From contig NC_091480.1 of NCBI RefSeq assembly GCF_036971445.1, forward strand, positions 71,548,001 through 71,612,000: DNA of 64,000 nt. Reading direction: 5' to 3'. Made by a program: the position numbers and the translations under genes. The notes beneath the pieces were generated by a model that was given only the letters and a program-made list of their open reading frames with translations, had not been told where the DNA came from and made no database searches. Shown piece by piece: positions 12,599 through 57,243 of this stretch. This DNA comes from Narcine bancroftii (lineage: Eukaryota). Positions within the stretch are counted from its first letter, which is position 1; each line of letters opens with the position of its first letter.

Positions 12599-12837
12599 GC
12601 TGGCGGCCGCTGCTCGCTGGCAACCTGTGAAAGAACCCAGAGAAGACCCTGAACACGCAGCCTCCTTGGATCCGATCAACACACAATGGAGCCGAGATCG
12701 GCCCTTTTCCCGGGTAAATCAGGCACCGCTCTGGGACGGGACTCGGGCCGGTCGCTCTTGGCCGCACTGGTTTCCGTCGGATCTCGGCCTGACCCCGCTG
12801 TCAGATACAGGGAGCGGCGGCGGCGGCTCTCACCGCC

Positions 12838-13345
12838 CGGCTCGGCGGCCTTTCCCCTCCTCTCCCCCCCCCCCACCCCCGGGGCTCGGCGGCCTCCTCT
12901 CCCCCCCCCCCCACCCCCGGGGCTCGGCGGCCTCCTCTCCCCCCCCACCCCCGGGGCTCGGCGGCCTCCTCTCCCCCCCCCCCACCCCCGGGGCTCGGCG
13001 GCCTCCTCTCCCCCCCCCCACCCCCGGGGCTCGGCGGCCTCCTCTCCCCCCCCCCCCCCACCCCCGGGGCTCGGCGGCCTCCTCTCCCCCCACCCCCGGG
13101 GCTCGGCGGCCTCCTCTCCCCCCCCCCCCCACCCCCGGGGCTCGGCGGCCTCCTCTCCCCCCCCCACCCCCGGGGCTCGGCGGCCTCCTCTCCCCCCCCC
13201 CCACCCCCGGGGCTCGGCGGCCTCCTCTCCCCCCCCCCCACCCCCGGGGCTCGGCGGCCTCCTCTCCCCCCCCCCCACCCCCGGGGCTCGGCGGCCTCCT
13301 CCCCCCCCCCCCGGGGCTCGGCGGCCTCCTCTCCCCACCCCCGGT
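12838..13345. repeat. GC-rich minisatellite in CDC6 intron 1, ~14 copies of ccccggggctcggcggcctcctct(c)n-a (~32-42 bp unit)
   Basis: Directly visible tandem array. The core is near-identical and the C-run length varies. Confidence 0.95.
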
Positions 13346-13361
13346 TCTCTCCCGCTGATAC

Positions 13362-14208: not shown

Positions 14209-17200
14209 TGTGGTGGTCCACCACCGGCCTACTGCAGGGGGCAACCTCTATACCTGCAGGTGTGTAAGGGGACAGGACAACACCTAGCCGGCTGCCAATC
14301 TGGGCCTGAATAGATCAAGCCCCACCCGGTCAGGGGTCAATCACCCTCCGGGATATAAGCCTGTGCCGGCCTCCCGAGGCCTCACTCAGAGTTACTGCAG
14401 CCATGGCCAGCCTGGCTCTGTGGAAGTCTTTGTGGATTAAAGCCTGTTGTACAGTCTTTACCTTGTGTGTGTCTGATTCTGGCTAACAGCGCACCACAGT
14501 TTAATCCACAAAATTTTCCCACGACTGCCATGAAAAAACTCCTGAGCACAGGGAGCCTCGAGGTCGACCCATGCCACCCGGAAGCCCAGACACGCTTCGA
14601 GATCTGGCAGCACGCAGTCGAGGAAATCATCGAGGCACATAAGGGCGACATCCTGGACTCCAATTAGAAGAGGTTGGTCCTACTCCGGTCAAAGCTGGGT
14701 TCCCGCGCCTTCCAGGTAACCAAAGGCTGCTCCACGTACAAGAGCGCAATAGACACTCTCAAGATCTTGTACAAGCCCCCCATGAATGTGGTCTGTGCAA
14801 GGTACTTCCTCAACACCCGAGCCCAGCAACCCGGGGAGTCGGCTGAGTCTTACCTGGGGCACTTGCGAGAGTTGGCCCGACCGTGTCTGGCTGAACCTGG
14901 GGTAAGTGTAGAGGAGGTCGAGAGGCTGATCCGGGACGCCTTCGTCCGAGGGCTACGCTCAAGGGTCATCCGGCAGAAGCTGCTGGAAGACATCATCTAT
15001 GCCCTAACCAGGTCTGTGGAAGTGATCCAAACCCTGGAAACAGCAGCCCTGCCTGTCGAAGACTTCGATTCCGGGTTCCCCCAGGCTTCCTCATGGCCCT
15101 CTCACAATGCAGCTGCAGCCCCAGGCTGAGATGGGGAGGAGAACGTCACTGCGGCAGGCGCCCAGCGCCCCTGTAAGTACTATGGGTCCTGGTGTGAGTC
15201 AGATCGACGATCGCGCCAAAATTGCTCAGCTAGGAACCAGTATTGTTCCCAATGCAGCAAGAAAGGCCACTTTGCAAAAGTGTGCCTCTCTAAACCTGCC
15301 GGCAGCTCAGCGGCTCTCTATGACCTCCCTACCTCCCCCGCAGACCCACCCCCCCCCCTCCATGTGCGCATGCCGGGCTGTGTCATTGTCTCCGTGACAA
15401 CTTCCGACTCCCCGACTTCGACCGCGCAACATCCGGCCCCGCCAGCAACCGTCGCAGCATGTGCTCCGAGCATCTGCACCAGTCCTCGCCGCTCGCTGAA
15501 AACTACAGCGACATCACTTCCGGCTCATGGCGTGACGTTACTTCTGGCTGACGTAACAACATCACTGCCGCCGGCTGTGATGACGTCACTTCCCCTGGTG
15601 CAGCGGACACGGCTGGGGAAGGAGGCCAGCCACGCAGCAGCTCCCTACGTGCCGCTGCCATCTTGGGCCAGGTCACGCCCGACATGGAGGGACCCCGACG
15701 ACGTTGAGAATGACGTGGTCAACACGGGCGATGATCAGGCCGCCCTACCGACGCCCCTCACGCCTCCAGGTGCCATCAGCTGCCGCACACCCCACCCAGT
15801 GACCGACGACAATGTGGTCAACACAGGCGATGACCAGGCCACCCTATCGACGCTCCCCATCCCTCCGGATAGCGATGACTCCGAGATGGTCCTGGCCGCC
15901 ACCATGCTGACCAGGGACATTCCCCACGATCTCGGGCACTCGATGATGGACATGCGAATCAACGGGCAGGTAACAAAGTGCCTGTTGGACAGTGGCAGCA
16001 CCGAGAGCTTTATTCACCCGAGCGTGGCCCAATCCCTACCACTTGCTCGATCGCCCTCGCCACCAAGGATAAGACTGTTGGTACCATCGGGTGCTGCTCA
16101 GTCGATATAACGGTGGGAGGGGAGACTTACACAGAATTCAGGCTCCTGGTCATGCCCAAACTCTGCGCACCACTCCTCCTGGGCCTGGATTTCCAGTGCC
16201 ACCTGCAGAGTGTCACCCTTGCCTTCGGGGGGGCCCCAACCTCCACTCACATTGCACAGCAGGCCAACCTACCAGCCCCGGCCAACCTGTGGTCTCTCCA
16301 CATTGCACATCACCCCACCAGCGCTCTTTACACATCTTGCGCTAGGCTGCAAGCCGATTGCCGCCAGAAGTAGGCGCTATTGCGCTGCAGACAGGGTCTT
16401 CGTCAAGGCGGAGGTGCGGCGACTCCTGGTGGAAGAAGTTATAGAGTCCAGTAACAGCCCTTGGAGAGCCCAAGTCCTGGTGGTCAAAGGGGGAAGTAAG
16501 CCAAGCCGAGGATGGACGTGGATTACAGCCAGACCATTAATCGGTACACCCAGCTGGATGCCTACCCACTGCCAAGGATCGCCGATGAGATTGTCAATGA
16601 GATTACCCGCTACCGGGTTTTCTCCACGATTGACCTGAAGTCGGCGTATTACCAAATCCCTATCCACCCGAAGGACAAGTCCTACACCGCCTTTGAGGCG
16701 AACGGGCGCCTGTACCAGTTCCGCCGGGTTCCTTTTGGGGTCATGAACGAGGTCTCCGTCTTCCAGCGGGAGATGGATCGCATGGTAGACCGGCACAAGC
16801 TGAAGGCGACGTTCCCATATCTGGATAATGTCACTATCTGCAGCCGTGACCAGCAGGACCATGATGCTAACCTGGAAAAATTCCTCCAGATGGCCGCGGA
16901 GCCGAACCTCACTTACAAGGAAAAGTGTTCAGCACCACCCGCCTCGCCATCCTGGGATACATTGTGGCCCGTGGAGTCGTCGGCCCAGATCTGGAAAGGA
17001 TGCGCCCATTAATGGAGTTACTCCTTTCCCCCCTTACCCCCCCCCCCACGCTAAAGGCCCTCCGCAGGTGCCTGGGCCTGTTCTCTTATTACTCGCAGTG
17101 GGTCCCTTGCTTCTCAGACAAGATCCGCCCACTGGCCCAAGCCACAACTTTTACCCTCCCACCTGAGGCACAGGCAGCCTTCACCCGCATCAGGCAAGAT

Positions 17201-19159
17201 ATCGTGGATGCCATGATGCAGGCTGTCCATGAGGACTCCCCCTCCAGGTGGAGAGCGATGCCTCCGAGGTAGCCCTTGCTGCTACCCTCAACCAAGGGGG
17301 GGGGCGCCCCGTCGCCTTCTTCTCCAGGACCATCCACGGCTCCGAGCTAGGGCACTCCGCCATTGCAAAGGAGGCCCAGGCGATTATGGAAGCGGTCTGC
17401 CACTGGCGCCACTACCTGACTGGCAGGAGATTCACACTCCTCACAGACCAGCGGGCCGTGGCATTCATGTTTAACACTACCCACAAGAGCAAGGTAAAGA
17501 ATTTCAAGATCCTGCGCTGGAGAGTCGAGCTGGCAACCTACAGCTACGACATCCAGTACCGCTCTGGGAAGTTTAACGACTCCCCTGATGCCCTCTCTCA
17601 CACCTGCTCGTCTATGCATGACGACAGGTTGCAGGCATTGCATGAGTTCCTCTGCCATCCGGGCGTCACCTGGTTGTACCATTTCGTTAAGTCCCGAAAT
17701 CTGCCGTACACCATCAGGGTCGTCAGGGACATGACCGAGGCCTGTCGGATCTGTGCGGAGTGTAAACCCCGTTTCTTCCGCCCACCCCAAGGCCTATGTT
17801 GTAAAGGCTACTCGGCCTTTTGAAGGTCTTGGCGTGGACTTCAAAGGGCCCCTGCCTTCCACGAACCGAAACGTCTATTTCCTCACGGTAGTGGACGAGT
17901 ACTCACGCTTCCCTTTCGCCATCCCTTGTCCGGACACCTCCATAGCCACCGTCATCAGGGCTTTGGAGCAGATATTCACCATGTTTGGCTACCCCGCCTT
18001 CATCCACAGCGACCGGGGGTCTAGGTTCATGAGCAACGAGCTACGCCAGTACTTGATGGCGAGGTGTATTGCGACCAGTCACATGACAAGCTATAACCCA
18101 AGAGGCAACGAGCAAGTGGAATGCGAGAATGGGGTGGTCTGGAAGGCAGTCCTCCTGGATCTCAGGTCAAAAGGGTGGGCTGTTGAGTTCTGGCAGGACA
18201 CCCTGCCTGAGGCGCTCCATGCCATTCGGTCACTACTGTGCACGGCTACCAATGAGACCCCTCATGAACGTCTGTTCTCATTCCCCAGGAGGTCGGCGAC
18301 TGGAATGTCACTCCCAGCATGGCTCACGTCCCCAGGACCGGTACTTCTGCATAAGCATGTAAGGACTCAAGGCTGAAGCCCTGGTGGAGCAGGTTTACCT
18401 CCTTCATGCAAACCATAACTACGCTTACATTAGGTTCGGCAGTGGCAGGGAGGACATCGTCTCAACCAGGGACCTAGCACCAGCAGGAGCACCCACCACA
18501 CCACGCTCCAACCCAGGACGACACTGACCGGGCATACATCCCTGTCTCCATGCAGCTATGGGGCACGCAGGGCCTCTTTGACTACCAGGGGCCTGCTTCA
18601 GCCTTGGGAGACGAACCTGCCCCCCCCCCCCCACCCATCCAATACAACTCGCATACGTCGGCCCTGGCCACCCCTCCGCACGGCGCCACACCAGCCACAC
18701 ACACCCCTGCTGCCAGACTCTCCAATTGCCCTCTGACCAGTGACCAGGAGCCAGTCCTATGATGGTCACTGAGACCCCGTCTCAACCAGTAAATATTGTA
18801 TGTACAAGGTGGGTGCGATTCCTTGTTACTGCCCCCCTCCCCCGGGATAATTTTAAAGAAGTGGGTGAATGTGGTGGTACACCACCGGCCTACTGCAGGG
18901 GGAAACCTCTGTACCTGCAGGAGTGTAAGGGGACAGGACAACACCTAGCCGGCTGCCAATCTGGGCCTGAATGGATCAAGCCCCACCCAGTCAGGTGTCA
19001 ATCACCTTCCGGGATATAAGCCTGCGCCGGCCTCCCGAGGCCTCACACTAAATTGTTGTAGCCACAGCCAGCCTGGCTCTGTGGAAGTCTTTGTGGATTA
19101 AAGCCTGTTGTACAGTCTTTACTTTGTGTGTGTCTGATTCTGTCGAATGGCGCACCACA
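14209..19159 (+). mobile_element. Near full-length Ty3/Gypsy (Mag-like) LTR retrotransposon, family A. LTRs 14209-14498 and 18870-19159 (290 bp each, TGTGGTG...CACCACA), PPT ~18855-18867, degenerate TSD attcc/attac.
   Basis: Two LTRs ~92% identical by manual count. gag (CCHC KKGHFAKVC), protease LLDSGS, RT YLDN, RNase H SDAS..EKEA-like, and integrase HHCC + DDE in gypsy order. Confidence 0.95.
14530..18560 (+). pseudogene. Disrupted gag-pol of the family A element
   Basis: ORF fragments 14467-14667, 14674-15129, 15280-16110, 15978-16373, 16512-17012, 16925-17272, 17248-17823 and 17753-18376, separated by stops and frameshifts. Confidence 0.9.
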
Positions 19160-19904: not shown

Positions 19905-20206
19905 TGTGGTGATACAACCACTGGACTGTCTATGACTGCCTGCGCCTGTCCACCCTCTTGCATGCATTGCCTCCTGCAGGGGGTAACCTATTGTACCTGC
20001 AGGGAGGTAACCTGGGAGACTGGCTCCACCTACTCCCTGCCAATCACCGGCCCCACATAAAGGCTCATGCTGGCCCTTGGGCAGGAGCGGAGCACACAAA
20101 GCCAGATGTGATACAGAACCTTGTATGCAAGTTTTAAGCTAATTAAAGCCTGTAATACAGCCTTTCGTTGTTTGTGCTTGTTTTATTCACACTGCAGTAC
20201 ACCACA
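19905..20206 (+). mobile_element. Solo LTR, family B, TSD CTCAT
   Basis: TGTGGTG...CACCACA termini, perfect 5-bp TSD, homologous to the LTR at 24296-24590. Confidence 0.9.
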
Positions 20207-20642: not shown

Positions 20643-23600
20643 TGATGCACAATCAATTACACAAAGACTGAAGTTACCGTGGTTGAAGGCATTTATTTAC
20701 AAGAGATAGACAGCATCCCTGTGTTGGTCGCTCACACTGACCCAGACTCGAACTGGGGGCAGGGTTGAGGCATGACAGCCTTTATGGGGGAGAAAGGGGA
20801 GGGAGACCAGGGTCAACCAGGTAAGGTCATGACATTTACATATAACGAATATGTACAATGGTTTCACCACATTCACCTCCTCTTTTGAAAGAAAAGTCCC
20901 GGGGGGGGTGTGGTGTCAGCTGACATCATAAGTTCAGTCAGTCCGGCAGTCTCATTTGGCGTTGTGACTGGCACATCCCCATCCAGGGGCCATGGCGGTC
21001 TCTGTTGGTTCTAGCTGATCCATCTCGGTTGGCCTGGCAGGGGTACTTCACTGAGCTGGGATGCGTGTGTCAGTTGCCGGGTTGGCAGGGATGGTGGGGG
21101 TGGGGAAGTTAGGCCCCGGAGAGCTAGGGGAGGGGGGTACCTGTTGGCTGGTTGGAGGGGGGTCCACATAGTCCTGTGTGTGCCAGGTCCAGGATGGATA
21201 CTGGGTCCTCACATCTGTCTGGGAATGCCACGTAGATGTACTGTGAGTTCATGTGGAGCAGCTGGATCCTCTTGACCAGAGGGTCAGATTTATGTGTCCT
21301 CACGCGTCTGCAGAGTAGGACTGGCCCGGGGAATGTCAGCCAGGTAAGTAAGGTGGTTCCCGACACCGATCTCCTGCGGAATCTAAACAGTCTCTCATGA
21401 GGTGTCTCATTGGTGGCTGGATAGCGTGGGAGCGCCTCTGGGAGGACCTCTTGCCAGTGGGGATGGGGAGGCCCTTGGACTTTAAGACCAGTAGTACTGT
21501 CTTCCAGACCATGCCGTTCTCCTGCTCCGCCTGGCCATTCCCATTGGGGTTATAGCTGGTGGTCCAGCTAGAGGCAATATTCTTGGACAGAAAATATTGA
21601 TGTAGCTCGTTGCTCATGAAGGATGAACCCCTATCGCTGTGGACATAGTAGGGGCACCCGAAAATAGTGAACAGTTTGTTCAGAGCCTTTATGATGGTAG
21701 CTGTGGTCATATCTGGGCAGGGCATGGTGAAAGGGAACTGCGAGTACTCATCGATGATGGTGATGAAATACACGATGCGGTTCATGGAGGGCAGGGGTCC
21801 TTTGAAGTTCATCCTTAGATGTTCAAAGGACCAAGTGGCCTTGATCAGGTGTGACCAGTTGGGCTGGTAGCACAGTTTGCACTCCACACAGACCTGGCAA
21901 TTTCTGGTCAGCGACCTGATGCCTTGATGAAGTGAAAAAATGGGTGATCTCAGGGTGGCAGTGCCTGCAGGCGATCCATCTGTGCACTGGAGCACGACCC
22001 TCGAGACAGGGCATACGAGGGCTCATTGAGCTTTCCGGGCCAGTACAGTATGTCGTAATTGTAGGTGGAGAGTTCAATTCTCCACTTCAGGATTTTTGAT
22101 TTTACCCCGCTGCTGATTGTTGAACATGAAGGCGACTGCTTGTTGGTCAGTCAGCAGGGTAAAATGCTTACCGGTGAGATAATGTCTTCAGTGCCGTACC
22201 GCTTCAACGATAGCCTGGGCCTCTTTCTCAATGGAGGATTTCTCAATGGGGCCCTGGAGAGTGCGTGAAAAAAACTCTACAGGCCTGCCCGCCTGGTTAA
22301 GTGTGGCAGCCAGAGCCAAGTCCGATGCATCACTCTCCATCTGGAACAGGATGGACTCTTCCACTGCGTGCATTGCGGCCTTTGCAATGTCAGCTTTGAT
22401 CCAGTTGAATGCCTCATTGGCTTCTGCTGACAGGGGGAAGTTGGTGGCCCTGATGAGGGGTCGGGCCTTCTCCACATAGTTGGGGACCCACTGAGTGTAA
22501 GAAGAGAAAAAGTCCAGGCACCTTTTCAAGGCCTTGAGGATTGGGAGTTCTCGCAGGGGGCACATGGGGTCAGGGTCGGAGCTAATGTCTCCATTCTTCA
22601 CAACGCAGCCTAGTGTAGCCAGGCGACGTGTGCTGAAGACACACTTTTCTGTGTTATATGTCAGGTTGAGGCGTTTTGCGTGTGGAGGAATTTCTGTAGG
22701 TTTCTATCATGGTCTTGCTAGTTGTGGCCGCAGATGGTGATGTGGTTGAGGTATGGAAAAGTGGCCCACAGTCCGTGTTCGTCCACCATCTGATCCATTT
22801 CCCTCTGAAAGACTGAGACTCTATTCATGACTCCAAAAGGGACCCTTAGAAAATGGTAAAGTCAGCCATCCACCTCGAGGGCAGTATACTGGTGGTCTTC
22901 TGGATGAATTGGGAGCTGGTGATACGCAGACTTAAGGTCTAGGGTGGAGAACACCCTGTATTGTTTGATCTGGTTCATCATGTCGGCTATGCGGGGCAGG
23001 GTATATGCATCCAGTTGGGTAAACTATTGATGGTCTGGGAGTAATCTATGATCATCCACTCTTCACCACCACTTCCTGGGCACTCTGTTCTATCATCCCC
23101 TCAGTGAGGAGGCGTCTCACCTCTGACTTAATAAATGCCCTGTCCCCGGTGCTATGTCACCGACGTTTAGTGGTGAGATTGGCAAACAGGGGTGGGGGAA
23201 AGATCCGGAGTGTGAAGAGGCTGCATGATGGATGCAGGGATTGGGTTTTGGGATGATGGTTAGCTATGTGATGAGAGGAGGACAGGCGGTTTAAAAACTG
23301 CTCGTTACAGACCATGAGGGGAGGGTGGGGCCCATCGTGCTCCATGGTGATGCTCTTCATGTTACACTGGAAGTCTAATCCAGTAGGATAGAGGCACAGA
23401 GCTGTGGCAGTATGAGGAGTGTAAAGTCCCGGTATACTATGCCCTGGACAGTCAGTGTTACCGTACAACTGCCACGAATCTCTGCCGAGTGAAATTTGGA
23501 TGCCATGGCATGCATCGTGGCATTGTCCTGTCTGATGTGGGCGAAGGCCACTTGTGCCTCCATGGGGAGGTGAAAGGTGGTGGCTGGGCCAATGGGCAGA

Positions 23601-24590
23601 CCTTGTCTGAGAACTAGGGGACCCACTGGAGTAGTAAGAGAAGAGCCCTAGGCACCTGCGGAGGGCCTTGAGCATGTGGGGGAGGAGCAGTTCCATCAGG
23701 GGGCACATGTGTTTGAGATCTGGACCGATGACACCATGTTCCACGACGCACTCAGGGATAGCAAGGTGGGTGGTGCTGAACACGCACTTCTCCCTATTGT
23801 AGATGAAATTTAATGCCTCTGCCGTCTGGAGGAACTTCTCCAGGTTGGCATCATGGTCCTGCTGATCATGGCCGCAGATGGTGACATTGTTCAGGTAGGG
23901 GAAGGTCACTCTCAGGTTATGTTGGTCTACCCTACGATCCATCTCCCTCTGGAACACAGAGACTCCATTTGTGACCCCAAAAGGGACCTGGCGGAACTGG
24001 TAAAGGCGCATGTCAGTCTTGAAGGCAGTATATGGCTTAACCGTGGCCTGGATGGGGAGCTGGTGATAGGCCGACTTTGAGTCAATGGTGGAAAACACCC
24101 TGTCCTGGGCTATCTCGTTGACTATGTCAGCGATGCGGGGCAGTGGGTAGGCGCCCAGCCTTAGTGCGAATAATTGCCCCGACTGAAGGCTTCCAGATCT
24201 CGGAGGGCTGGAGCTTCCAGACGTTGGTGGTCGATATCCAGTTTTTCTATGCTGAGAAACTTCTCCATGGTTCTTTAAAATTAAGCTAATTAAATTGTGA
24301 TGCATTGCAGTGCAAACAAACAAGCTTAAACCACGAAGGCTGTACTACAGCCTTTAATTAGTTTAAAACTTGCACACAAGGTTCAGTATCCCTTCTGGCT
24401 CTATGTGCTCTACTGCCTACATGAGAGCCAGCATGAGCCTTTATATGGGGCCAATGATTGGCAGGGTAGATGGAGCCAGTTTCCTAGGTTATCTCCTTGC
24501 AGGTACAATGGGTTTCCCCCTGCAGTAGGCAGTGCGGAAGTGTGGACAGGTGCAGGCAGTCACAGACAGTTCAGTGGTTGTATCACCACA
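20643..24590 (-). mobile_element. Chimeric Gypsy (Mag-like) relic. Family B 5' LTR (24296-24590), gag stub and RT (~24160-23510), fused to family C PR-RT-RH-INT (~23505-21150), PPT and family C 3' LTR (20643-20871).
   Basis: ORFs 23157..24323, 23375..23626, 22188..22601 and 21336..21995. Two RT cores. The terminal LTRs are non-homologous and there is no TSD. Confidence 0.85.
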
Positions 24591-25848: not shown

Positions 25849-27424
25849 GCCTCGACTTTAAAGGCCCGCTCCCTTCCTATGACAGGAACGTCTATTTCCT
25901 TAATGCCATAGACGAATACTCCTGCTTCCCTTTTGTAATCCCATGTCCCGACGTATCGGTAGCCACGGTAATAAAGTGCCTGCAATCCATTTTCAGCATG
26001 TGTGGGTACGCCGCCTTTATGAGTGCCAAAGTCCAGCAGTACCTACGGGATAGAGGCATTGCCACCAGCCGCACCACAAGCTACACTCCCAGGGGTAATG
26101 GGCAAGTAGAAAGGGAAAATGCCACTATCTGGAAAACCATCCTGTTGACCTTAAAGGCAAAATACCCACCCGTGGAAAGATGGCAAGATGTGTTACCTGA
26201 GGCTTTGCATTCTATACGCTCGCTGTTGTGTGCCGCCACTAACACAACACCACATGAACATATGTTTTCCTTTTCGAGGAAAGCCACACTGGGCACAGTG
26301 CTGCCTAGATGGTCATGACACCGGGACTGGCACTCCTCTGGAAGCACTGCAGGCCCCACAAAATGGACCCACTGTTGGAGCCAGTGGAGTTGAGGCACAT
26401 GAACCCCCACTATGCATTTGTCGCATTCAGGGATGGATGGGAAGACTCAGTGGCCACCAGGGACCTCACACCAGCTTGAATCGTGGACGACGCAGGAGAG
26501 TCGCAGACTTCTACAGATCAGCACCAAGGAATCATGGACGACGCGGGAGAGTCGCAGACCCCGTCGGATCAGCACAAAGGACAACAGACACCAGGACAGC
26601 CAACCATCGCATCACCCCAAAGGGCCCCACCAAACAATACACCCCCAACAACCAGTACTCGTACGGAAAGCCATACACCCCCTCAGCATACTCCCACGCT
26701 GCAACCAATGGGAAGCTCTACACCCACTCAGCATACTCCCACCCTGCAACCGAAGGAAAGCCCTACACCCCCTCAGCATACTCCCACCCTGCAATCGACA
26801 GGAAGCCCTACACCCCCTCAGCATACACCCACCCTACACCCTCACAGCATACCCCCATCCAATGTCAGGACCCTTGGCCCTCAATACCCTATACTCCCCC
26901 TGCCCCAGTACCCCGAAGGTCCAGGAGAAAAAGGAAGGCCCGTCAGATACTGGACATATGAACTTACGGGGTGGGGGGGTGGGGGAGAGGTCAAAATCCT
27001 TAAGGGGGGGAATGAATGTGGTGATATGCTATTACACCATTAGGTCACCAGGTGCCACCACCTGACCACCTTGTATATAAAGCCGACTGGAGCTAGGCCC
27101 CTCCATTCTGACCCAGGCTTGCACAGAGGCAAGACCTAGATGTATCTATTAGTGTGTTGCGCTGTTAGACAGAATCAGACACACACAAGGTAAAGACTGA
27201 ACAACAGGCTTATAATCCCGGAGAGTGATTGACACCCGACCGGGTGGGGCTTGATCCATTCAGGCTGACTGATTGGCAGCCGGCCAGATGTTGTCCTGTC
27301 CCTTACACTCCTGCAGGTACAGAGGTTGCCCCCTGCAGTAGGCCAGTTGTGTACCACCACAATTAGTCTATTAAAACTAGCGTTGAACTTGCACTCTGTC
27401 TCGTGTGGTAAATGTGTCATCACA
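25849..27424 (+). mobile_element. Gypsy 3' fragment, family D: integrase core, repeat-rich tail, PPT and 3' LTR (27017-27424) interrupted by a nested LTR
   Basis: ORF 25818..26318 (LDFKGPLP...IDEYS...GNGQVEREN). aaggggggg-aatgaa|tgtggtg boundary; the LTR ends catcaca. Confidence 0.88.
27153..27361 (-). mobile_element. Internally deleted family A solo LTR nested in the family D LTR, TSD ATTAG
   Basis: Reverse complement of 14209-14498 lacking ~81 bp. attag at 27148-27152 and 27362-27366. Confidence 0.92.
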
Positions 27425-29770: not shown

Positions 29771-30769
29771 GAATTGGACGTTGTCACAGGTCAATGTCCA
29801 GGATCAGAAAGAGGGGGGGGGGGGAATGTAATAAAAGGACACAAGTGGCTGTGTGTTGCTTTCCCCTTCCTATCTCCATACTTGGGGACTTTCCAGATGC
29901 TGGTAGCAGGTCTCCAGGAACTTTGTCGTAAATTCTGGGTTCCTGAATATGGAATTATGCCTGTGGACTCAAACTCAGGCCCTTCAGGGTAATGTGAATT
30001 GACTTCAAATTCTGAGTGTACAGCACTGCACATTGTCTTGGATAGTTAGCTCACTGGAAGATTCCCAAGTGTACTCTGTTAGTGATGTAGTAAGTGTCAT
30101 TGGGAGAGAGCATTTTTGGATGAAAAGTCCTCTTTGCATATGATATCTGTCCGTAAATGAACTATAGTTATGATCAAGGACTACTGGTGTAAACAAGATC
30201 TACCAGTGCATTCTAGTCTTCAAATGAAGCAGAAATATTGCTGCATTTTAAAATAAACTCCCATGTTTGGAAAAAAAACCTGTGGCAATTGCTCCACCAG
30301 GATCTAGTGTGGACTAGATGGGCAAAATGGCCTCCTTCTCTGTCATACCTTCTTATGAAGACAAAACTTTATGTCTCAACTTCAAGTTAGCACTAGAGCA
30401 CTCAGGAACTTATCTGAGTCAAAATATTGCCATACTCTCCCCCATCAAATGTGGTAGCTTTTGGAAGAGGCATCAAAAGAAAGCTCTATCGGGGTACCTC
30501 TGTGGAGGTACAGATTCTTTGCCAATATTTCTGTTATAATGTATAAATTATTGAGCGTGTGTAGTAGATATTTGATCTGCTCCAAGCTGGTGGAGTAATC
30601 GTTTTTATCATTGTTGAATTCTCATATGTACTGAGGTGCAGTGAGAAGGTTGCTCTATGCGCAATCTAGCTAATCAACACATATATAGTACAGCAATTAA
30701 GACATAGCATAGAGTACAGAGTTTCACAGAAAGAGATCAGTTAGAGCAGATCGAGGGCAAGAAATATTT

Positions 30770-31930: not shown

Positions 31931-33030
31931 AAGGGGGTGCTATTGGATGCTGGGACCTATCTGCTGATGGGGGGTGGTGGTGCTATTGAATGCTGGGACC
32001 TCCCTGCTGATGAATGTCAACACCATCCATCCCTCTGACATAGGTGATGAGGGTGCTGCTTTTATTGCATCAATGGAGGTGTCTTCATAAGAAGGTATGA
32101 CAGAGAAGGAGGCCATTCTGCCCATCTACTCCACACTAGATCTTAGTGGAGCAATTGCCACAGTTTTTTTTCCAAACATGGGAGTTTATTTTAAAATGCA
32201 GCAATATTTCTGCTTCATTTGAAGACTAGAATGCACTGGTAGATCTTGTTTACACTAGTAGTCCTTGATCATAACTATTGTTATGACCCAATCAGTCGGG
32301 ACTTTCACTGTAAAACTGATTCTGAACTTAGGATCTAGAAAAGCTAATATGTTTTGACTTCGTCCTTCTGGGATAATATTTCTGCTTTTACTTCATTTCT
32401 TCTATATTTTCAGGCGGACAAACCATATCCACTGAATATATTTTTAATGATATGACGATACATTTTTAACAGAAACTACATTCCCAATAAAGTAGGGAGA
32501 GCAGCTCATGTTATTTTCAGATACCTGCATCTGACGTCAATGCACTGATGCAGCTATCAAATGTTAAAAGCATCTCATTTCTGCATCATCCACTCAAAAA
32601 TGACAACCAGATGCATTCTGTCACCCACTGTATTTATCTCTTGGCTTTCAGCTCTAAATGATAAGAAACAATTTTTTGAACATCATTAAAAGTCAAATGA
32701 AAATGTTGTGTTTTAAAATTCTCGATGTTGCTTCTAGCTTAGATTAAAAAAAAACCTATCTACAGTATTTTCACAGTCCACATATGACACGCCAGAGGCT
32801 GGAATTTCATATGCAACGGTGCACAGTAACACAGTAACAATGATTCCAAATAAAATTCTGGAAGTATTCAGTAGATCAGACACTAACAGCGGACAATGAT
32901 AACATTTCAGATCAATGGTCATTCATCCGGTGTGCCTTCAACAGAGAAGGAGGGAAAAAAACCGAAATAAAAATCTGCTTTGATAAAAAGGTTCATGATG
33001 CTAATGAGAAAGAAGGTCAAAGTTCAGTTT

Positions 33031-41559: not shown

Positions 41560-42775
41560 ATTTCAATTATAAAATAAAACAATTTAATAGTTTAAAATGC
41601 ATATTTTAAAAATTATTCACCTCCATTCAAACAGTTCTGATATGCCATAGGCCTTGCTAGCACTCAAACCTTGCAGCAGTCTTCTGTGCTGTCGGCCATT
41701 GAGGTGCACTCACTCTATCCAGAGGATATGGAGGTGGTGGGTTATCACAGGGTGTGGTGTAAAACAGGGTAGCTTTGCTAGCAAGATCCTCCCCCCCCCC
41801 CCCCCCACCACCCTCTGAATCTATTCTACACTTCCATTTTATTTCTTGTTGACTTTGACATTTCTGTGCACATTACCCAGTTGCACATTGATCAGGTACA
41901 GCAGTCTGTGATGCACGGTTGCACTTTGGTTTATGCACTGATTAAATGTCGCAGGCGTTTAACAAAATCAATAGAAGCTGCAGAAGGTCTCCAACCTACT
42001 TCATCATTCAATAACATAACTCCATAGTTTTCGTCCACTAACCCTTGATTCGCAAGGAATTCAAAAACCTATGGATATCACCCTTCAATATGTCCAGCAA
42101 CTGCACATCCATAGGGTAGAGAAGATGAACGACCTTCCTTTAATCATGAACATATTTGACCAATAACAAATAGAAAACACAGAAATGCTGGAGGAACTCA
42201 GCTGGTCTCACAGTGTCCATAGGAGGTAAAGATATATAAGGCCTTCCTGACTCGACTTATTGCTTGAAGAAGGGCTCAGGCCCGAAATGACGATGATATA
42301 TCTTTACTTCCTGCGAGACCAGCCGAGTTCCTCCAGCATTTCAGTGTGTTTTTACTACAATCACAGCATCTGCAGACTTTAGTGTTTCACTCCACAATAT
42401 CCAATTGGCCAGAAAATTATATTGCATCAATCTATCAAAACTAATGTGCCGACATTTCCCAACACAGACAATACAGCTACGTTTTTGTGCTCTCCTATGT
42501 CTGTGGTCTGTTGCATGTAACGTCATGGAGTCATACAGCACAGAAAATGGCCCCTTGAACCAATCATCTATGACTTCAGGTGCCCCCCTACCTACGAAGG
42601 TCTGATATGATTTTTCAAAGTTACGACTGTTGTTATTTACTTTCATGTAATATGTTAAAGTGAGGTCACCACAAGCATTGTTGATTTTTCCAGAAACGTT
42701 GATAATTCCTCTAAGGTGAATTCTTTGTAGCCTACTTGGTCAATCACTTCTTTTAGTTCAGTCAGAAAGCTTGCA

Positions 42776-42968
42776 GGGACTGATACAGGGCTGTCAGGAG
42801 AGAGTGGGGCAGTGGGATCGGTGTTGGGAATGATAAAGGACTGTGGGGAGAGAACGGGTCAGTGCGATCAGTGTGGGGACTGATACAGCGCTGTCAGGAG
42901 AGAGCGGGCAGTGTGACCAGTGTGGGGACTGATAAAAGGCTGTGGGGAGAGAGCAGGGCAGTGGGATC
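42776..42968. repeat. Minisatellite of four ~50-bp units with A/B alternation
   Basis: gggactgatacag.gctgtcaggagagag alternates with ggga.tgataaa.g.ctgtggggagaga. Confidence 0.85.
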
Positions 42969-42971
42969 ATC

Positions 42972-56174: not shown

Positions 56175-57243
56175 AGTGGCCACAGATGGTGACATTGTCG
56201 AGGTATGGGAAAGTGGCCCGCAGTCTGTGTTCATCCACCATCCGATCCAGTTCCTTCTGAAAGACAAACTCCATTCGTGACTCCAAAGGGACCCTCAGGA
56301 AATGGTAAAGAGGCCATCCCCCTCGAAGATGGTATATTCCCAAGATGGCAGCCCTCGTGTTCCCCATGAGGTGGCTGCCTGTTTGCTGGAGAACGATTCA
56401 GTGTTGTGGACGGCCACCTCTAGAGTGTTCACTAGTTCAATGGTTTGAGTCGGCTCAGTTGTCTCTGTTCGAGTAGCCTCTGCCTCACATAGTCGGAGCA
56501 GACGCCTGTGTTACAGGCGTCTCTGATCAGCAGCTGTGTGTGCTGTTCTGCACCCACAGCCTGGCAGTTACAGTACCTTGCGAGCTCCTGCAGGGCCCTG
56601 ATAACGTCATTGAAGGTTTCCCCAGGTCGCTGCCTGCGCGAGTGGAGTGTGTGCCACACGTAGACCTCATTCACCTGGACTTTATACTGGTCCTTCAGGA
56701 TGTCCATGGGATCTCTGTACGTCTGGCACTCCTGGACCATCTGGTAGACCCGGTGCCCGATGTATAAGAATAGCAAATGGATCTTGTCCTCGTCGACCTG
56801 GATCGCAGCTGTGGAAGCTGTGAGGAACTTTTCGAAACAGTGGCTCAAGAGTGCGAACTTGTCGGCTGCCTCATGTTCTCTGGGTCAATTTCCAGGCGAT
56901 CCAACTTCATGTACTTGTTCATGTTCCGAAAAAAATTTTGCAAATAAAATTGATGTGCAATCAATTGCACAAAGACTGAAGTTGCCAAGACTGAAGGCTT
57001 TTATTTACAAGAGATGGTCAGCATCCCTGTGTTGGTCGTTCACACTGACCTGGACTCGAACTGGGGGCGGGCTTGTGGTATGACAGGCTTTATGGAGAAG
57101 AAAGGGGAAGGAGTCACGAGCTGGCCAGTGAGAGCAGGGTACAATAGTGGTTTCACCACTTTCACCCCCTCGTTTAAAAGAAAGTCCCGAGGGGTGTGGT
57201 GTGTTCAGCCAACCCTCAGATGAGTGATAGTGGTTTCACAACA
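56175..57243 (-). mobile_element. Family C Gypsy relic: LTR stub (57243), 3' UTR/PPT (57161-57215), LTR (56951-57160), gag (~56920-56430) and RT fragment (~56330-56175)
   Basis: LTR and 3' UTR homologous to 20643-20920. ORFs 56432..56848 (gag) and 56173..56367 (TFPYLDNVTICGH). Confidence 0.88.

Follow-up and report, generated by a model that had tools for sequence, protein, structure and literature searches.

The primer for minus-strand DNA synthesis binds the bases directly after a retroelement's 5ʹ long terminal repeat (LTR). At one LTR within the 64,000-nucleotide stretch of Narcine bancroftii DNA analysed here (the window), this position is filled by a sequence complementary to an AATAAA-containing segment of the LTR itself. 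A first-pass annotation of the letters had noted this pairing and had argued, from a single G·U wobble within it, that it functions at the RNA level in divergent families. The locus raises the question of whether such a helix is a conserved RNA structure and, if so, whether it primes reverse transcription, controls polyadenylation, or does both.

The family C helix and its surroundings

The window carries decayed Ty3/gypsy elements with domains in the Pfam order PR-RT-RNaseH-IN, and three families of these (A, B and C) have different LTRs and share one common RT subclade (Table 1). A self-BLAST of the window found no LTR match from C to A or from C to B, which agrees with the earlier remark that the family C LTR resembles neither. 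The view that the structure spans divergent families stands insofar as the helix is kept in A, B, C and their relatives, but the three families all belong to that single RT subclade. Two family B LTRs in opposite orientation (19905-20206 and 24296-24590) flank a family C remnant, and the first of them resembles a solo LTR. The window also holds minisatellite arrays at 12816-13360, 26478-26841 and 42757-42969, with units of ~37, 45-51 and 50 nt, as well as an inverted repeat of 204 nt (30160-30363 and 32080-32282; 97% identical) whose arms are possibly DNA transposon ends.

Table 1. Positions of the family A, B and C features within the window
Feature	Position	Strand	Remarks
Family A element, PR-RT-RH-IN	14209..19159	+	Arm 14429-14441 pairs 13/13 with leader 14500-14512
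Family C 3ʹ LTR belonging to another element, T-arm variant	20643..20871	-	PPT in front, no leader behind
Family B 5ʹ LTR (24590-24296) and leader	24281..24590	-	Arm 24366-24353 and leader 24294-24281 paired, with one A·C
Pol fragment	56176..56326	-	Similar to 22724-22878
Gag remnant, broken	56432..56922	-	Stops and a frameshift
Family C leader arm at primer-binding position, no TGG	56938..56949	-	Read 56949-56938; 1 nt past the terminal CA of the LTR (LTR end 56951)
Family C LTR	56951..57160	-	Decayed; ~40 nt below the ~248-nt sibling LTRs; first base changed, TG>AG
Hairpin near LTR end	56955..56970	-	Seen in family C, predicted fold
Small hairpin GCC...GGC, candidate cleavage junction	56984..56998	-	Begins at the first base past the LTR arm
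LTR arm, candidate self-primer	56999..57010	-	Read 57010-56999; family register 57012-56999; 3ʹ end of arm opposite first base of leader arm
AATAAA, likely poly(A) signal	57000..57005	-	Sole canonical hexamer in the scanned part of the LTR
TATA-like CATAAAG	57088..57094	-	~80 nt upstream of arm; distance conserved in families A, B and C; putative function
Polypurine tract (PPT)	57161..57175	-	Directly in front of the family C LTR

The letters and positions given by the first-pass annotation hold, including the 1-nt spacer: the window helix of family C comprises 12 bp, of which 11 are Watson-Crick and one is U·G, and it encloses a loop of 49 nt. When the LTR and leader were folded together, as had been suggested, the helix was present in both the MFE and the centroid structures with a mean pair probability of 0.91. 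Taken in its entirety, the 261-nt fold does not stand out (z -0.6). When the leader was held to begin 0-3 nt after the LTR and the LTR was dinucleotide-shuffled 3000 times, 12 pairs were reached once. In full, the family C helix has 14 bp, and the window copy has also lost pair 13, which is now a C·A mismatch. The hairpin near the LTR end is a feature seen in family C. The family B copy in the window folds differently because of its mismatch.

Family C is judged to be old because the LTRs within a copy are 83-91% identical, as measured in twelve copies with both LTRs (20 stretches were taken, of which seven had no 3ʹ LTR and one was not parsed). Around the window copy (56951-57215), the PPT and ~40 nt of internal 3ʹ sequence stand before the LTR, with leader and gag after it, an arrangement that suggests a tandem remnant or an inserted one-LTR circle.

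Conservation of the helix among relatives

Relatives were collected as 89 loci from metagenome and MAG contigs, of which 49 matched the gag start; five of these without upstream DNA were dropped and three were too short, leaving 41 testable. Several loci (L161-L163 and L165-L169) are animal-type gypsy elements with LTRs in contigs under bacterial MAG names, and these probably represent host DNA in the bins. In each testable relative, the longest perfect helix upstream of gag was sought with no preset position and was compared with 40 shuffles and with gag-internal controls. A perfect helix of 10-19 bp was found in 32 of the 41, and all but one of these 32 beat every one of their 40 shuffles; the gag-internal controls reached a maximum of 9. 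No 10-bp helix was found in the remaining nine, three of which carry the same helix in broken or short form, one split over contig ends and five without a recognisable 5ʹ LTR-leader.

Sixteen representatives chosen from these relatives, together with A, B and C, make up 19 families, which are not fully independent (three stand at 88-94% RT identity); RT is present in 17 of them, with a median identity of 58%. The leader arm is preceded by the three bases CAA in 18 of the 19 families and by CAG in the other, the LTR arm ends in TAAA (17/19) or AAAA (2/19), and the loop measures 24-66 nt. Across pairs 5-12, Watson-Crick pairing holds in 149 of 152 cells while the letters vary, compared with a mean of 84 and a maximum of 120 when leaders are swapped among families; the registers are those of the longest helix, and this covariation count is to be read with the position-free search. 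For the 17 families in which the fold was scored in the correct register, mean pair probability is 0.86-0.98. Rfam returned no match at E<=1. We conclude that the helix is a real, strongly conserved feature. The pairing is very likely a feature of the RNA across families, as had been proposed.

Closely related copies add further detail. Relative to siblings that are 98-99% identical, the young element L091 carries a compensating transversion pair, and its arm change is present in both LTRs. The siblings L085, L101 and L123 have an uncorrected distal mismatch in common. In one copy (L021/L080), the 5ʹ arm and leader have both changed from G-C to C-G while the 3ʹ LTR still has G, which could reflect coincidence, hairpin-templated DNA repair or a chimeric element.

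Other elements of the 5ʹ region recur at similar places. Most copies of families A, B and C have a TATA-like motif upstream of the arm, at a distance of ~75-85 nt. A small hairpin usually begins at the first base after the arm, with a summed score of 69.5 versus 36±4 (0/2000 shuffles) across families, a pattern that was noticed post hoc and is not significant when the families are taken one by one. Thirteen of the 19 families have AATAAA or ATTAAA in the arm, and the other six have GTTAAA, TTTAAA or GATAAA. In two of these six, L082 and L083, a canonical signal lies unmasked in the loop, outside the helix, and the helix is still kept. The first-pass annotation had placed its emphasis on AATAAA, but the non-canonical hexamers of the six families and the unmasked signal in two of them imply that masking is probably secondary.

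The G·U wobble

The argument that a tolerated G·U favours RNA function mostly fails when all copies are considered, and survives only as an enrichment at this one pair. We scored 49 distinct family C copies (from 60 loci, 30 of them obtained via a pattern requiring perfect flanking pairs), 30 of family A and 28 of 30 of family B. In these 107 copies 1409 pairs were Watson-Crick, 17 were G·U, 21 were A·C and 49 were of other kinds, and mismatches were thus not biased to G·U (p=0.63). The 30 BLAST-picked C copies alone gave 8 G·U versus 9 A·C by hand count. Among the 19 family representatives, with registers set by the longest helix, the one G·U in 228 pairs is that of the window copy.

At the wobble pair itself, the 49 family C copies show C-G in 28, U-A in 11, U·G in five and C·A in one. 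Four of the 30 BLAST-picked copies have U·G at this pair versus ~0.3-0.5 expected from decay (P 3e-4 to 1e-3), in a test that is partly circular, the window copy being among the four. The G·U may be a tolerated intermediate at a single pair where family C is either C-G or U-A. The second family C LTR (20643-20871) does have T at the wobble position, as had been noted. It serves, however, as the 3ʹ LTR in a different element, has no leader and belongs to a T:A family variant. On the family C tree, the nearest relative of the window copy is U-A (support 100/97), and one U·G element (L078) carries T in each of its LTRs. The idea of a G·U sublineage that replicates was considered and is not supported, as the five U·G copies fall at scattered places in a tree of poor resolution. 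The G·U is not a family signature, and the wobble itself is minor.

Primer sites in the helix group and in other elements of the genome

A canonical TGG tRNA primer site in the leader would have spoken against the structure, and TGG directly after the LTR was found in none of 20 leaders. The best leader matches to 34 host tRNA genes, which cover 13 anticodon types only, are 5-8 nt long, with one of 11 nt. The latter joins the L098 leader to a host tRNA-Thr gene and is probably a chance match.

Other gypsy clades of the same genome served as controls, and their best helices were 4-9 bp in 16 LTR pairs. Elements that we take to be Mag-like, from their LTR ends and general background, have TGG directly after the LTR in eight of nine cases. 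One young family of this type (L260-L266 and L279), with TGG primer sites and LTRs that are 95-99% identical, is abundant in the genome. A further gypsy group (L268-L270, L273 and L276), in which integrase apparently precedes RT, has no self-helix and carries TGG only a few bases past the LTR, none directly after it.

Clade membership

The elements with the helix have the PR-RT-RNaseH-IN order, a gypsy-type RT, TG...CA LTRs, a PPT and a target site duplication (TSD) of 5 bp, the last readable in six relatives. A profile of 23 relatives has Ty3 Gag-Pol as its best PDB match (E 2e-102). A chromodomain is absent from all 23 proteins and also from the domains listed for 120 hits. Among named proteins, relatives were found in rays and sharks, in cnidarians, in a nematode and in a damselfly; no relative was found in viral contigs, and a gag-region search at E<=1e-50 returned the query alone.

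All 32 RT rows of the helix group, some of which are without a scored helix, lie on one side of a branch with support of 100, opposite 16 other host gypsy RTs, in a quick tree whose outside rows include no confirmed chromovirus RT. The Mag-like host elements show ~25% RT identity to the helix group and occupy a separate branch, and this separation and their TGG site speak against placing the helix group in the Mag lineage.

Two named clades invite comparison. Elements of the CsRn1 clade have a tRNA primer site, a CHCC gag motif and a 4-bp TSD. By these traits, which are general background here, the helix clade differs in having no TGG, a double CCHC in 86 of 120 proteins and a 5-bp TSD. The CsRn1 LTR begins with TGTGGYG (PMC3601003), and the same start is found in families A, B and C. 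Relatives begin with TGTTGTG, TGATGTG or TGTCGTA. Cigr-1 is presumably characterized by short LTRs, one gag-pol ORF of ~1200 aa, Mag-like gag knuckles and marine invertebrate hosts, all of which fit the relatives. The clade is possibly Cigr, judging by these features. A RepeatMasker subclass LTR/Gypsy-Cigr is named in supplementary material of PMC8556966. In the searchable portions of two mollusc and annelid surveys (PMC6238403, PMC8556966), the Cigr clade is named and we found no sequence or primer data for it.

A self-priming model and its alternatives

Self-priming is the simplest reading of the helix because the primer position is without TGG and covaries with the element's own LTR, and because the 3ʹ end of the arm is oriented into U5. 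Judged from sequence, the helix is probably a self-priming site, with the 5ʹ LTR arm as primer, in a chromodomain-less Ty3/gypsy clade without a tRNA site; self-priming in either form, by the 5ʹ or the 3ʹ arm, appears very probable. Masking of the poly(A) signal is probably a second role of the helix. The frequency of AATAAA and ATTAAA in the arms is also compatible with poly(A) control, which counts against the self-priming reading.

The proposed sequence of events begins with transcription. From the position of the TATA-like motif we infer a start ~50 nt upstream of the arm, which would make the primer internal. (The arm as a TATA box was rejected, since at loops of 24-28 nt the start would land on the LTR end.) None of the sequencing runs listed is registered as RNA; three contig-only runs of one study span the LTR with no start, end or poly(A) tail, and were left out of the evidence. 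The helix would then form in the 5ʹ leader and, given the hexamers found in most arms, would also hide the poly(A) signal there, whereas the 3ʹ LTR, having no leader behind it, would leave its signal free. The RNA would probably be cut at the junction of arm and hairpin by the element's RNase H, as in Tf1, producing a 3ʹ-OH at the start of the leader arm. Release of an internal arm by RNase H is not known, which counts against the model. RT would next copy U5, and the short stretch from the cut to the poly(A) site could serve first-strand transfer. If the primer were copied back into the primer site, paired double changes could be explained; copying of the full primer is less favoured because L085, L101 and L123 keep their distal mismatch.

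Self-priming might instead use the 3ʹ copy of the arm, from the tail of the same RNA or of the partner genome, trimmed from the poly(A) end rather than cleaved at the 5ʹ copy. The arm does occur in both LTRs, with its end at the likely poly(A) signal, and trimming requires no internal cut, while the internal 5ʹ arm departs from the arrangement in Tf1. Nevertheless, the local 5ʹ fold is strongly predicted in the 17 families folded in register, and priming from the 3ʹ end would presumably use up the strand-transfer acceptor, and we hold this version to be unlikely. It is also rather improbable that the helix solely hides the 5ʹ poly(A) signal, in the style of the HIV-1 polyA hairpin, with priming by some other primer. 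Masking would account for arms that end in AATAAA or ATTAAA in most families and in TAAA or AAAA in all, and for a partner present just behind the 5ʹ LTR, which gives a clean 5ʹ/3ʹ asymmetry; structure-based repression is described for HIV-1 (PMC2645353). However, the partner coincides exactly with the position of the primer, so that no second site for a primer is left, six families have the variant hexamers, the canonical signal of L082 and L083 is unmasked, and near-perfect Watson-Crick pairing exceeds what masking is likely to need.

The primer could also be a piece from within a tRNA or some other host RNA, and the LTR match secondary, as half-tRNA priming is known in some copia groups (PMC6317226), one leader has the 11-nt tRNA-Thr match and the tRNA comparison covered only the 13 anticodon types. 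The leader letters, however, vary by family and covary with their own LTR, which a fixed host RNA cannot track, making such a primer highly improbable. There is only the slimmest chance that the helix is an accident of A/T-rich sequence, or an inverted repeat at the DNA level that has no function in RNA. Both A and T are frequent in the arms, the region as a whole folds unremarkably, and the double change of the L021/L080 copy is missing from its own 3ʹ LTR, but the shuffles, the swapped leaders, the fixed register and the absence of the helix in other clades largely refute this explanation. Self-priming by the 5ʹ arm, with masking as a second role, remains the reading that we favour.

Novelty and implications

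Our literature search, whose range stopped short of subscription papers, Repbase and the original Cigr-1 paper, found no report of self-priming in this clade, and a prior mention is quite possible. Term look-ups in the texts of PMC12440569, PMC2774666, PMC9873768, PMC6934838 and PMC3670739 returned nothing decisive on this question in the portions that they reach. If true, a second gypsy clade with self-priming would bear on a question posed in PMC3601003, namely whether priming by a hairpin is an ancestral trait or has evolved several times. The elements would be freed from host tRNA and perhaps, by extension, from silencing by tRNA fragments. Furthermore, an internal primer with a link to the poly(A) signal would represent a different RNase H substrate and a compact way for an LTR to silence its 5ʹ poly(A) site. 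[quoted passage not shown] LTR finders that require a tRNA site would miss or misannotate the helix clade.

Comparison with known systems

In HIV-1, the polyA hairpin occurs at both RNA ends and the primer is a tRNA. The helix clade resembles this system in placing an RNA helix over AAUAAA near the 5ʹ end (as described in parts of PMC2645353 and PMC3694450), and differs from it in that the arm's partner is found beyond the LTR, in the position of the primer.

Self-priming has been predicted elsewhere, for the plant Tcn1 (gypsy) and TAR (copia) lineages in sections of PMC6317226 and for Tj1 in a portion of PMC4600332. The helix clade shares with Tcn1 and TAR the same sequence criterion, namely a complement of at least 10 bp that begins 0-5 bp after the LTR (PMC6317226, same sections). 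The Skipper elements of dictyostelids are mostly without TGG and, in the relevant part of PMC5006619, have no such complement to their own LTR.

The closest parallel is Tf1, for which the self-primer is the RNA's first 11 bases, cut off by RNase H (PMC7175516, in part), and lies within a structure of three duplexes, the ‘pretzel’ (PMC10085805, in part). Self-priming is proven for Tf1 only and, among gypsy elements, is regarded as characteristic of the chromoviruses of the Tf1/sushi group (PMC10085805, PMC6317226). Like Tf1/Tf2 and Tf1/sushi elements, the helix clade has no tRNA site, and a site past the 5ʹ LTR complements an LTR stretch of similar length; it also shares the superfamily and domain order of Tf1/sushi. 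Unlike the Tf1/sushi chromoviruses, it has no chromodomain (0/23). Whereas the Tf1 primer is the first 11 nt of the RNA, the arm of the helix clade is probably internal, at or beside the likely poly(A) hexamer, and is followed by a local hairpin. The pretzel duplexes were not detected, as neither flanking duplex of the Tf1 type was consistently above shuffles in 20 leaders with a simple ungapped test. As far as its letters indicate, the helix would work like that of Tf1, yet by the chromodomain and pretzel tests its clade is not a member of Tf1/sushi.
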